Positions 7,126 through 60,095 of a stretch of DNA of 64,000 nucleotides are shown one piece after another; position 1 is the first letter of the stretch; each line of letters begins with the position of its first letter. The DNA comes from Eledone cirrhosa. Lineage: Eukaryota. The stretch covers positions 143,592,001 to 143,656,000 of the forward strand of contig OZ024743.1 in NCBI GenBank assembly GCA_964016885.1. The letters are read 5' to 3'. Both the position numbers and the translations under genes were made by a program. The notes under the pieces are model-generated. The model was not told where the DNA came from. It was given only the letters and a program-made list of their open reading frames with translations, and ran no database searches.

Positions 7126-7329
7126 AACAAAGGAATTGTGGTAAGGAACCAGATGGACCATAACGCACAAGAGTACTCAATACTTAGGGTAGTAGAGTGG
7201 GAAATAGGAAAAAGTATGACCCCGACGGCAGAGGTCAAGCCGTTTCGACGGCTATTATATTCCACTTTAGTCCAGAAATAGCCGTCGAAACGGCTTGAGC
7301 TCTACCGTCGGGGTCATACTTTTTCCTAT
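7126..7329 (-). mobile_element. Penelope-like 3' terminus with 53-bp fold-back and partial hammerhead ribozyme, in (TA)n
   Basis: Inverted arms 7204-7256 and 7277-7329 (2 mismatches); GAAA-CGG...CCG-TC (stem III and GUC triplet) at 7287-7309; homologous to 41501-41598. Confidence 0.65.
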
Positions 7330-7371
7330 ATATATATATATATATATATATATATATATATATATATATAT

Positions 7372-7505
7372 GTAGTGGGAGAGAGAATACAAGAGATGGT
7401 TGCTTCCAGAAAAAAAGGGAATAGAATCCATATGCGATATATATTTTTTACTGAGGGAACATTTACACACCGGGACTAATCAGTTTCATCTCAGTTGGGA
7501 ATCAT
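7372..7505 (-). mobile_element. Possible degenerate Penelope-like 3' terminus
   Basis: Minus strand TGATTCCCAACTGAGAT-GAAA-CTGATTAGTCCCGG resembles the ribozyme region at 11381-11418 but the core is damaged; flanked by TA-rich repeats. Confidence 0.35.
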
Positions 7506-7519
7506 TATCATCATCATCA

Positions 7520-8077
7520 TACACACACATATATATATATATATACATACACACACACACACACACACACACATATATATATATATATATATATATATAC
7601 ATATATATACATATATATATATATATATATATATATATATACATATATATACATATATATATATACATATATATATACATATACATATATATATATACAT
7701 ATATATATATACATATATATATATATATACATATATATATAGATATATATATACATATATATATATATATATATATATATATACACATATATATACATAT
7801 ATATATATACATATATATATATACATATATATATATATACACATATATATATATATATATACATATATATATATATATATACATATATATATATATATAT
7901 ATACATATATATATATATATATATACATATATATATATATATATATACATATATATATATATATATATATATATACATATATATACATATATATATATAT
8001 ATATATATATATATATACATATATATATATATATATATATATATATATATATATATATATATATATATATATATATA
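7520..8077. repeat. (TA)n/(TACA) compound microsatellite
   Basis: Seen directly. Confidence 0.95.
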
Positions 8078-8547
8078 GTGTAATTATGACTGTGTATTCC
8101 TCCACGCTTCACAAGAACGTAAACAAATCTAAACCACACCTATGCCACCTACGAATCCAAAGAGAAGCAAACGACAACCATTCTTTCACGATCATATCAT
8201 CACCACTACATATCACACACACACACACACACACACACACACACACACACACACACACACACACACACACACACACACACACACACACACACACACATGT
8301 ATATATTAGACACAACCACCTATATTAATGAGTGCTAAATTTCAACCAAGCGCTTCGCTCCTTTATTCCACGGTACAATCAACCCAAATCACAAAACTCT
8401 ACATGACCCATAAATTAAATCCAAACACATCATTCGAAACTGTACCCTTGTTCTCTCAGCCAAACAACAACCAGCCTGCACTAATTACTGGTATGTGTGT
8501 GTGTAAGTATGTGTGTGTATGTGTGTGTGTGTGTGTGGGGGGGGGGG

Positions 8548-56479: not shown

Positions 56480-56688
56480 CGGCAATATCAGTAGAGGGTC
56501 GGACGCCAACTTTGCAGCATAGAGTTATGGGCCTTTACGGTCCGAGTTCAAATCCCACCGAGGTTAGCTTTGCCTTTCATCCTTACGAGATCGATAAAAT
56601 AAAGCACCAGTAATGTCCTGGAGTCGATTTAAACGACTTTCCCCTCCCCCCAAAATTGCTTACCTTGTGCCTAAAATAGAAACAATCA
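56480..56688 (+). mobile_element. SINE family A, near full length
   Basis: GGCAATATCAGTAGAGGGTCGGACGCC...GAGTTCAAATCCC...GCCTTTCATCCTTACGAGATCGATAAAA...GTGCCTAAAATAGAAACAAT. Confidence 0.8.
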
Positions 56689-57441
56689 TTTTAAATGACG
56701 GGTTTTGGGGGACCGGTTATTGCATTTTAAATTGTGGATTTGTTTTTATCTGTACGATAGCAAAGTTTTATTTTATTTATTTAGCAGGGAAAATTGCAGT
56801 AACCTAAGATATTGAAGCTAGAATGTAAAAAAACATAAATTTTTTTATTTTATTCGCATCCCTTCCTCCTTACTGAACATTTAGCCCCCCCCCCCCCCCT
56901 ACTACTACTACTACTACTACGGGGGAGGTCTGCTGTAAAGAATGGATTTGTGTGGTGGTGACATGTATGTGTGGGAGATACACGTGTAGGTGAAGGTATG
57001 TGTAGGGTGGTGTGGCTAGGCGAGGCCACGTGTGGGTGGTGAGGGCATGTGTGTACGTGTAGAGAAGTATGAATCGGTAGGACAATGATAGTGGCGAGGG
57101 TCGTGTATGTGTGGGCATGTGTAAAGCTGGGGAGGAGACTAATAGTGTTTATGGTAAAGGTGAGGCTGGAGAAGCAGGGGTAGGTGAAGGTGTGTGGATC
57201 GTGTAGGTGAGGGCATGTGGAGTTGTGTGGCGGTAGACACGTGTAGGTATGGGGTTGTGTGTGTATGGGAAGGAGCGAGTAGCGGAGACTGTTATATGAA
57301 GGTGAGGGAATGTGTGAAGCTAGAGAGGCACGTGTATGTAAGGATATGTACGTGACTCGTGTAGGTGAGTGTATGTATGTATGGGTCGTGTTGGTATGTG
57401 TGTAGGTAGAACTGATGGTATTTATGGCGAGGCGGTGAGTA

Positions 57442-57624
57442 GAGGTAAAATTCCGTTATATCGAATACCATTATAACGAATTTTTCACTATAACATTTTT
57501 TCCAATTCCCGAGGTAATAACAAACAAACTCTCGATTTGTTTCGGTCGATCTCGTTATAACAAATGTTTCGTTACAACGAATTATTTTTATATCCGTGAA
57601 TTTCGTTATAACGGAATGTCACTG
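57442..57624. mobile_element. Tigger/pogo-like (Tc1/mariner) MITE
   Basis: Imperfect TIRs ...ATTCCGTTATATCGAA / TTCGTTATAACGGAATGTCACTG, internal CGTTATAAC repeats, TA at both flanks. Confidence 0.6.
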
Positions 57625-59614
57625 TATAAGAGCATGTGTGTAAAGCGAATCGGGTAAGCTCGAGTAGGTTAGACTGTGATAGGTATTAACAGAATAAGTA
57701 CAGCAGCGGACAAATTCTTTGATGTTCTGTGTTTAAATTCCGGCGAAGTCGACTTAGTCTTTTATCCCTTGGGTGTCGATAAAATAACAGTACTAATCAA
57801 ACATTGAGGTTGATATAATCGACTTTCTCCTCCCCGCAAATTGTTGGCCTTGTGCCTAAATTAGAAACAATTTATAGCGAAGTTGTGTATGGGAGATTAA
57901 TAAGACAAGCGGTGGTATTGTTTGTAAAGGTTTATAAGTGTAGGCGTACAGTTGAGGCTCTGTATGTGTGCACAGGTGAGGCTTAGTATGTAGGCGTGCG
58001 TGCACAGGTGTGACTGTGTGTGTGTATATGCACAGGTGTGGCTGTGTGTGTGTATGCACAGGTGTGGCACTGTGTGTGTGCACAGGTGTGGCACTGTGTG
58101 TGTGTGCACAAGTGAGACGCTGCGTGTGTAGATGTGTAGGAGAGGTTTTTTTGTGTGTGTGGATGTGTAGGTGAGGCTCTGTGTTTAGGTTTACTACAGG
58201 TGTAACTGTGATGTAGATTCATGTGTAGGTGGTGCTCCGTGTGTGACGGGGAGGGAAGGAAATAAATAGGTGTATGTATATACGGAGGGTGTGAATGTAG
58301 ACGCGGAGAGGGAATGTCTGGCTGAACCAGTGGTTATATGTATGTGGAAAGGGGTTATATATATGTATGTATGTATGTCTGTTACAAGGGACATGGCTAA
58401 CAAAGGTTGTGTAACAAATAATCTATTATATATAAATGTATGTCACTTATGTAACCCCGTAACGCGTGTGTATATGTGAGCGAGATAGACGGGTGGCAGT
58501 TAATAGTGCGATCTACCGCAGTATCCCGTAGTCTACGCCGTGTAGTGATTATATATGTCATTAATTAATAAATCATTATTCAACTTGTTTTAATCACCCT
58601 GTAGTATAGTTTCTGTAGTTAAGGTAGACGACACGCTGGACTGTAAATGACCAGCTAGACTTCACGCTTAAGTATAAATGACCAGATAGACGGAATGTTG
58701 GACTGTAAATGACTGCATGCTAAAGTGTAAACTACGTAGACCGGCCGCATCGAAGAGACATAACTTTTGGAATTCCCCTCTCCCTCACTTGCTCATGTTT
58801 TTTACTGCAGTTATCAACTTGCAGCTGTATAACTTCAAGCACACCGATTTTCCATCTCTTGGAAGCTCTGCAAAACCCTTGGGCTCATCCCCTTCTATCG
58901 AGCCAAGCCATTGAACAACAAACACAGACATAGCTGAAAGTCCGCTTCACAACCACATGGTTTCAAATTCTGCTGGTTTCACCAATGACTTGTGAGTGAA
59001 ATTTGGTAGGCGGAAACTCTGTAGAATCCTGTTTTATATGGCCTGTTTTATATGGTGGTTAGGGTGTTGGTCTTACGATCATAATGTCGCGGGTTCGAAT
59101 TATGAACTGCATGACACGTCGTTCTTTATTTCACATTGCTGAAAATAATGACCAGCGGTAGCAAGGGGTTAACGTTGGGGTGGACTGGCGTCTTGTCTTG
59201 TACTCAGGATAAGCCTGATGAGCCTCTGGGATTAGTGCTTTTAATATATAAGTCTGTGTTTACTTCTTTTATGTCCTGTGATAGCAGTTCGACGAAAGGA
59301 AATCGGTAAAATAAGTACAAAGCTTAAACAGTAAGCTCTGGGGTCGATATCATCGACTAAATCCCTTGTATGAGGTATTCTAGCATGGCCGCAATCTAAT
59401 GAAACCAGTAAAAGAATACACACACACACGTAGTTTGTTGTGCGGCACTTTGGGCAAAGTATCTATTATAGCCTCGGGTTGACCAATGCCATGTGTTGAA
59501 TTTAGTAGGCGGAAACTGCAGAAGCCCGTCACACACACACAAGGCTGTACTCCAGCATGACCGCAGTTTAATGATTGAAACCAGTGAAAGAAAAGATTAT
59601 ATATATATATATAT

Positions 59615-60095
59615 AACCAAATATTAATATGGTTCATTGATTACTTAATGAATATAGTTTTACAATAGATTAAAAGCACTCTACAAAGTTTTCTGGAGTT
59701 ATTATTATTCAAAATATTAATAAATGTTGACATTTACATCATCAAAATGTTTTATTATATATATTTCGAAGGTACTGTGCTGTTTTTTTCAGTACGTCCT
59801 CGTCAGATAAAATACATGAATTGATGTATGACATACCTCAACGGTCTTGATGGTTCAATTCCAGTAACTGAATGAACCATCAAGACCGTTGAGGTATGTC
59901 ATACATCAATTCATGTATTTTATCTGACGAGGACGTACTGAATGAACCATCAAGACCGTTGAGGTATGTCATACATCAATTCATGTATTTTATCTGACGA
60001 GGACGTACTGAAAAAAAACAGCACAGTACCTTCGAAATATATATAATAAAACATATTTTGATGATGTGAATGTCATCATTTATTAATATTTTGAA
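59615..60095 (-). mobile_element. Penelope-like 3' terminus with an about 150-bp fold-back and a 70-bp tandem duplication, next to (TA)n
   Basis: Left arm 59708-59857; right arm 59873-60095 with 59867-59936 duplicated as 59937-60006; hammerhead on both arms. Confidence 0.75.
59988..60051 (+). ncRNA. Type I minimal hammerhead ribozyme (mirror copy on the - strand at about 59750-59813)
   Basis: TTTTAT / CTGACGA / stem II containing GTACTG...CAGTAC / GAAA / TATATA / TA / ATAAAA (perfect 6-bp stem I). Confidence 0.8.

Follow-up and report, generated by a model that had tools for sequence, protein, structure and literature searches.

A small bulged hairpin recurs near the 3' end of Penelope-like elements in a 64,000-nucleotide (nt) stretch of the Eledone cirrhosa genome (assembly GCA_964016885.1, contig OZ024743.1; this whole stretch is hereafter called the window). 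The hairpin is real and structured, is kept across phyla and is bound to a fixed insertion boundary. We infer that it probably serves as an RNA handle that is bound by the reverse transcriptase in order to start complementary DNA (cDNA) synthesis at an internal site 3-8 nt upstream, a reading that draws on the sequence and pairing pattern of the hairpin, on covariation, on its position relative to the ends of short copies and on its linkage to Hydra-type endonuclease genes in a genome bin, G001. The single in vitro study of a Penelope-like element mapped two starts without a recognition element common to several families; for what sets the internal start and the one-sided tail, the hairpin offers a compact candidate that is backed by covariation and follows a tight distance rule, which a few mutants would suffice to test. 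The hairpin also represents a boundary marker for copies without an open reading frame (ORF) as well as a point of comparison for telomerase, the sister enzyme of the Penelope reverse transcriptase, which positions an internal template.

The hairpin in the window

An earlier note on the window had described a conserved ACTC/GAGTRC stem-loop at six places, and all six are present (Table 1). The loose pattern ACTC-N9-18-GAGTRC has 8 matches in the window, compared with 0.95 expected, and 0 of 100 shuffles gave 8; the two matches beyond the named six, at 10899-10926 (+) and 11236-11263 (-), represent one further family, E. A bulged pattern, derived from these same six copies, has 6 window matches against 0.06 expected. 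The distance from the motif to the 3' end is 41-61 nt, within the 40-65 nt given by the note, and the motif lies, as was also proposed there, downstream of the hammerhead ribozyme where one is present: the full hammerhead is found upstream in families B, C, and D, while A1 retains only its 3' half and A2 and A3 have none left (hammerheads being read as motifs in the letters). The idea that the carriers are otherwise dissimilar families held only in part. When A, B, and C/D are compared, their flanking sequences (25 nt on the upstream side and 45 nt on the downstream side) show no better alignment than shuffles (z ≤ 1.3), and the motif is therefore more conserved than its flanks; on the other hand, A is present threefold (7173, 31287, and 41526) and C and D are homologous (71.6% identity across 116 nt), so that "six independent families" had to be rejected in favor of three lineages, A, B, and C/D. 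The motif is also not a generic neighbor of (TA)n repeats, as the other listed (TA)n-abutting ends in the window, including those of a Penelope family (F) with a GIY-YIG ORF, lack it. Degenerate look-alikes near 10425 and 10795 were not counted, as their upper stem is missing, and a covariance model built from five window copies identified no additional copy above chance.

Structure and covariation

While the ACTC/GAGTRC stem stood as originally drawn, its presumed loop holds, in 6/6 window copies, a second stem of 3-4 base pairs (bp) above a 2-nt bulge (TT, TC, or TA). The full motif consists of an RCUC/GAGY lower stem, a 2-nt U-led bulge, an upper stem of 3-7 bp, and then RC. The upper pairs change jointly, being TAC/GTA in A and B, CAA/TTG in C, and CAG/TTG in D; across the five distinct window copies 34/34 cells are paired, which is matched by 9/500 shuffles.

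Covariation was assessed in 19 hairpins selected for element context (5 from the window, the metagenome locus L059, and 13 of 29 G001 hits), with pairs counted end-anchored because MAFFT misaligned the hairpins. Among these, 131/133 cells are paired. Pairs 6 and 7, which were unconstrained by any search pattern, are paired in 18/19 hairpins each, compared with permutation means of 10.8 and 10.1, and the observed pairing was reached in 0 and 2 of 20000 permutations, respectively, although these counts are not probabilities because the 19 rows, which were picked by context, are mutually related. With a bulge length of 2 nt, 55/57 upper cells are paired, while other lengths give 11-28, so that 2 nt is the sole bulge length that fits. 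At the outer pair, the window hairpins and L059 have A-T and the G001 hairpins have G-C. The 19 hairpins contain two G.T cells and no A.C cells.

Ends of short copies relative to the hairpin

In five of the six window copies (A2 is single-armed), a (TA)n-type repeat holds a head-to-head insert that has unequal arms and a one-sided tail; this is the anatomy described for endonuclease-positive (EN+) Penelope-like elements (PMC8557442, PMC3846280). The last base of the short arm that is common to the long arm precedes ACTC by 5 nt in four copies (A1, A3, B, and C) and by 8 nt in D, such that the rule holds in 5/5 window palindromes. By contrast, the distance from the short-arm end to the hammerhead cut site varies (20, 22, 51, and 48 nt; A3 has no cut site), as does the distance to the far end (77, 80, 67, 87, and 92 nt). 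The exact end is blurred by 1-5 terminal shared bases that also match the (TA)n target; in D and B this match is 1-2 nt at most.

Reads over 11376-11810 were examined in two restriction site-associated DNA sequencing (RAD-seq) read sets (X21 and X22, under the species label of the best-matching run) and two contig sets. In family C, 5312 of approximately 17100 reads (X21) and 6004 of approximately 18000 reads (X22), i.e., about a third, exit into (TA)n at 11616, fractions that are rough because RAD-seq samples loci unevenly. A second cluster at 11632 (1438 and 1489 reads) continues through about 10 diverged letters into (TA)n and is presumably a subfamily's version of this end. At 11622, which is 5 nt before ACTC, a tandem joint that carries no (TA)n ambiguity is found in 6 and 21 reads, and tandem joints of family B are found at 11436-11443. 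Among the 40 substitutions listed, of 111 in the reads, none falls in the lower stem or RC and 5 fall between the ACTC and GAGT arms. The reads also contain tail-less tandem units that run from the hammerhead vicinity to the short end, with lengths of about 78 nt in B (11376-11443) and about 59 nt in C (11622-11676), and that look like minimal retrozyme-like arrays.

Among the family A copies, A2 (41491-41525) is preceded by a run of 14 G and opens where the hammerhead is predicted to cut, 25 nt before ACTC, and A3 (31313-31340) has its apex 22-25 nt before ACTC; these two copies hint that the template may have been a self-cleaved RNA of about 100 nt.

Hairpin-bearing elements in genome bin G001 and wider scans

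A scan of genome contigs with a pattern combining a Hydra-type stem III and the hairpin identified 39 loci. Five of these came from G001, and all five have a CTGATGA core, which the pattern did not demand; among the remaining 34 loci none has a hammerhead core, and these were dropped as chance matches. Although G001 is classed as prokaryotic, it includes many AT-rich animal-like contigs rich in Penelope-like elements, which are likely host contamination. The GCTC form of the hairpin has 30 matches in G001 compared with 2 for a reversed control, and among the 29 distinct hits the upper stem has at least 3 bp in 22, and a hammerhead core lies within 130 nt in 15. The ACTC form, with 6 matches compared with 20 in the control, was attributed to chance. 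A Hydra-type endonuclease is encoded just upstream in six G001 hairpin families. Its CxCX5C linker, without CCHH, is intact in the L134, L183, L199, and L202 families, where it lies upstream of the hammerhead, while the endonuclease in L136 and L176 is of this type but has a truncated or disrupted linker; the G001 hairpin families thus encode an endonuclease of the kind that defines the Hydra clade in PMC8557442. Pfam did not recognize the Hydra-type endonuclease fragment.

Sister copies of ten reference hairpins were gathered among the collected loci only. Short copies of six families (14/14) end before GCTC, by 3 nt (two copies), 4 nt (one copy), 5 nt (six copies), or 6 nt (five copies); eye reading was used for three ends that the aligner had extended to 1 nt and for six at which the exact walk had halted at earlier substitutions (the two sets overlap). 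Five rows at 33-41 nt were dropped as cross-family matches or a fold-back joint. The hairpin is present in 0/9 rows of a G001 Neptune-type family and its relatives, which have a CxxC linker, (TA)n ends, and long as well as short copies, and it is likewise absent from an abundant G001 family of unknown type. L182, L186, and L139 contain solo tails (the hairpin plus 30-40 nt) that are inserted without a hammerhead, some of them inverted beside the short end of another family.

A metagenome scan with the ACTC form plus (TA)5 gave 92 loci in 60 groups, of which 6 have a 3-bp upper stem and none has a hammerhead core upstream or a tblastn match; these matches were read as chance, except for L059, where the core would fall past the contig end and which is similar to a G001 hairpin family. 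Viral scans gave one match each, both outside element context, and protein-led locus searches found nothing.

The hairpin in published Hydra-clade consensi

Among the six Hydra-clade consensi in File S7 of PMC8557442, which were inspected by eye, three have a full match to the GCTC/GAGC-AC form with a paired upper stem and a 2-nt bulge. The hairpin is found at the 3' end of Hydra-2_Amil (from a coral) and Hydra-2_Ajap (from a sea cucumber). Hydra-1_Ajap has it twice at its 5' start, the consensus beginning 2 nt before the hairpin and halting at its 3' end in a TATAT patch, a layout that is to be expected if the tail forms the start of the element body. Near-matches are present at both ends of Hydra-1_Crog (from a copepod) and a weak one in Hydra-1_Amil, while no hairpin was seen by eye in the Hydra-1_Obim consensus. 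Eighteen words of 8-9 letters representing the 3' strand had 49 hits across the whole supplement of the same paper. Four of these are in the Hydra file, all in hairpin context; the 45 hits outside that file, including those in Naiad and Chlamys, were not in hairpin context by eye, although line breaks may mask hits. Tandem pairs of hairpins with differing upper stems occur at L177:1501-1617, in L203 around 1501, and at the Hydra-1_Ajap 5' end, and could provide two alternative internal starts.

Proposed role and alternative explanations

If the hairpin acts as an RNA handle, the protein would read the invariant CUC/GAG stem, the U-led bulge, and RC, while the AU-rich patch immediately 5' of the stem would pair with the nicked (TA)n target, which would serve as primer. 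Copying would then begin at this patch, 3-8 nt upstream of the hairpin, and the hairpin would be absent from the short arm because copying starts upstream of it. A second start about 29-61 nt past the hairpin would yield the tail-bearing arm, and the two starts together would generate a head-to-head insert with a one-sided tail. A cis-acting signal for reverse transcriptase, as the earlier note had suggested, fits well with the fixed 3-8 nt ends in two genomes and with the compensatory changes; as a signal general to Penelope-like elements it did not hold up, since the hairpin is absent from the Neptune-type ends checked, from the letters of the published figure for the Anolis element PAc, and from the context of the Naiad and Chlamys word hits. 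We also put forward, tentatively, the stronger proposal that this phylum-spanning hairpin of Hydra-clade elements might alone be sufficient to make a telomerase-related reverse transcriptase start 3-8 nt upstream, in which case the tail would be an uncopied protein-binding module and relocating the hairpin could place the start at will on any RNA.

In addition to the relatedness of the 19 covariation rows, a number of points weigh against a role as a reverse transcriptase handle. The hairpin is thermodynamically modest: on RNA folding, its bulged form has the lowest energy in four copies (A1, A2, C, and D; lower-stem pairing probabilities of 0.7-0.96) but not in B (0.2) or A3 (0), and the stability of the whole tail exceeds that of shuffles weakly at best (z from -2.2 to +1.0 across the six copies). 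The swap of the outer pair between A-T and G-C mostly follows genome and may reflect few events, and the G.T and A.C counts would only weakly favor folding of the sense strand, for which the evidence is thin. Tails do not require the hairpin, because tailed families without it exist (F in the window and the Neptune type in G001). The hammerheads of C and D resemble those of the G001 Neptune type more than those of the Hydra type, coverage of loci by RAD-seq is uneven, and the 96 letters extracted from Fig. S1 of PMC11167929 for PAc, the sole element tested in vitro, contain no RCUC/GAGY hairpin.

Identical genomic ends would also be expected from a fixed cutting distance if the hairpin acted at the DNA level, in cDNA or in an extruded genomic copy, as a site for the GIY-YIG endonuclease, which would cut about 5 nt off and trim one arm when the intermediate is resolved. 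Craig 2021 (PMC8557442) gave endonuclease-mediated resolution as the origin of the tail, the D. virilis Penelope endonuclease needs tail sequence in order to recognize and cut plasmid DNA, as cited in Frangieh 2024 (PMC11167929), and the hairpin tracks one endonuclease type. We nevertheless consider this explanation unlikely, since the loop length (9-17 nt between lower stem and bulge) varies, unlike that of a duplex palindromic site, since G.T but not A.C pairs occur on the sense strand, and since both tail boundaries of PAc are reverse transcription starts (PMC11167929). An RNA processing or termination signal, with transcripts cut or ending about 5 nt before the hairpin and reverse transcription then proceeding from a true 3' end as in long interspersed nuclear elements (LINEs), predicts the same short ends and could account for the RNA-seq read ends that Frangieh 2024 (PMC11167929) reported at PAc start sites. 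This appears improbable, given that adding RNA 3' of the PAc start left the insertion band unchanged, demonstrating that initiation is internal (PMC11167929), and that no nuclease candidate was identified in this analysis.

It seems highly improbable that the hairpin is a relic, such as a hammerhead stem III that was duplicated, or that it serves transcription or translation as a 5' leader element, with the end set solely by an AU-rich patch that matches (TA)n. Such an origin is suggested by 5 Hydra-clade rows in File S2 of PMC8557442, where ACTC-N1-GAGT is the stem III of the hammerhead, by the tail doubling as the start of the element body, with tandem hairpins in Hydra-1_Ajap, L177, and L203, and by the TA-like patches that precede the hairpin in several families. 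However, GAA never precedes the hairpin and the base following GAGY is often G. The hammerhead cut site disallows G. Identity with hammerhead stem III was rejected for the window hairpins, as GAA stands before 0/6 and C and D have G after GAGT. Covarying pairs across phyla are moreover not expected of a relic, and the AT-rich tails hold other TA patches, yet the ends cluster near the hairpin, including those of D and B with their minimal target match.

Comparison with known systems

In PAc, the tail is delimited by two internal sites at which reverse transcription starts; the internal start maps to nt 111-118, and RNA reaching as far as nt 172, about 55 nt downstream of this start, is required (PMC11167929). 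The hairpin elements resemble PAc in having head-to-head inserts, a one-sided tail, an upstream hammerhead, and two 3' ends per family, with RNA past the internal start being of importance in PAc. PAc differs in that it belongs to the Poseidon clade and starts within a stem-loop rich in AC, and no motif that spans families is reported for it, whereas the hairpin elements have a conserved structure at a fixed 3-8 nt past the short end. Published Penelope tails are 30-40 nt long, compared with 67-92 nt in the window.

With the Hydra clade (PMC8557442) the hairpin elements share (TA)n targets, a canonical hammerhead, and the hairpin itself, which is found in 3/6 of the new consensi and behind Hydra-type endonucleases in G001. 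By contrast, the window copies have no ORF, carry ACTC/GAGT instead of GCTC/GAGC, and include the Neptune-like hammerhead of C/D. The clade of window copies A-D can only be suggested from sequence features, because these heavily truncated copies carry no ORF; tblastn of the G001 Hydra-type ORFs against the window gave no credible match. The (TA)n insertion and canonical hammerhead of A-D are non-exclusive features, as Neptune and Naiad also use (TA)n. The stem III of B, ACAG/CTGT, is also present in three Hydra-clade rows of File S2 (PMC8557442), and because the B hammerhead fits Hydra while the C/D hammerhead resembles Neptune, the hairpin may reach past a single clade.

The analogy with LINE 3' stem-loops raised in the earlier note stands with regard to form but not geometry. 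The 3' stem-loop of the stringent LINEs UnaL2 and ZfL2, which is a binding site for the element's protein and indispensable for retrotransposition (PMC1636434, PMC4176376), is likewise a small bulged RNA hairpin near the 3' end with a conserved stem and a family-variable loop. LINE stem-loops, however, lie upstream of the start and are copied in every insertion, whereas the Penelope hairpin lies downstream of the inferred start and is missing from the short arm; the two also differ in retroelement class and in sequence.

The words "hairpin", "stem-loop", and "bulge" do not occur in the main text of PMC8557442, and the structure is not mentioned in the portions seen of PMC4209133, the retrozyme preprint 10.64898/2026.07.22.740005, and PMC8969392. 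The note knew of no description of the hairpin in these elements, and none was found in the Penelope literature searched (subscription papers and Repbase reports lay outside the search).

Other features of the window

Table 1. Hairpins, hammerheads, and related features in the window.
Feature	Position	Strand	Remarks
Head-to-head insert A1 in (TA)n	7127..7329	-	Final shared base of short arm 5 nt before ACTC
Hairpin, family A copy 1 (A1)	7173..7198	-	ACTC/GAGT, upper stem 4 bp, TT bulge, then AC
Hammerhead 3' half, A1	7224..7246	-	GAAA, stem III; predicted cut after 7224, 25 nt before ACTC; CTGANGA core missing
Candidate hairpin, family E	10899..10926	+	7-bp stem, GAGTGC, no 2-nt bulge; orientation and membership uncertain
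Inverted twin of family E candidate hairpin	11236..11263	-	Likewise bulge-free
Type I hammerhead, family B	11374..11424	+	CTGATGA core, stem III ACAG/CTGT; predicted cut after 11418
Hairpin, family B	11446..11466	+	In palindromic insert 11313-11507
Hairpin, family C	11595..11616	-	In palindromic insert 11535-11994
Minimal type I hammerhead, family C	11665..11730	-	Core 11716-11722; predicted cut after 11673
Hairpin, family A copy 3 (A3)	31287..31312	-	TC bulge; in palindromic insert 31238-31354
Penelope family F, negative control	40580..41392	-	Has a GIY-YIG ORF fragment, a hammerhead core (40829-40835), and a separate tail of about 57 nt; hairpin absent
Hairpin, family A copy 2 (A2)	41526..41551	+	In single-armed copy
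Hairpin, family D	59676..59699	-	TA bulge, one G.T pair; in palindromic insert 59616-60095
Minimal type I hammerhead, family D	59750..59815	-	Core 59800-59806; predicted cut after 59756

Rfam listed no hammerhead of these families among 150 of 316 matches (E up to 1), and the matches listed were microsatellite-driven and under the gathering score. The sole GIY-YIG ORF in the window (41036-41392) is part of the separate family F, on the opposite strand. Two of the family F copies at 40580-41392, 42357-42505, and 42958-43017 stop at an ATAT patch and one continues into the tail, while a further copy bears the tail inverted at its opposite end; this tail is able to form a distinct GAAT/ATTC hairpin.

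A second short motif, TRTGGTY, is found 5-20 nt past GAGTRC in A, B, and E1 (7156-7178, 10921-10948, 11461-11482, and 31266-31292). It has 5 window matches compared with 0.29 expected, but was derived post hoc and carries no weight in the argument; its placement favors an inward reading of E. A large nested inverted repeat at 10344-12700 (10387-10844 with 12204-12612) surrounds families E, B, and C together with a short 3' end that is RTE-like, and represents a hotspot for insertions that target (TA)n, accompanied by fold-back duplication. A (TA)n-inserted family at 12880-12987 and 17409-17520 has GAAA upstream of CTGAYGA, i.e., a permuted or half hammerhead-like core, and lacks the ACTC/GAGT hairpin. 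Broken LINE-type reverse transcriptase ORFs of three kinds, which are unrelated to the hairpin, are located at 2406-4950, 14065-16674, and 42991-44856.

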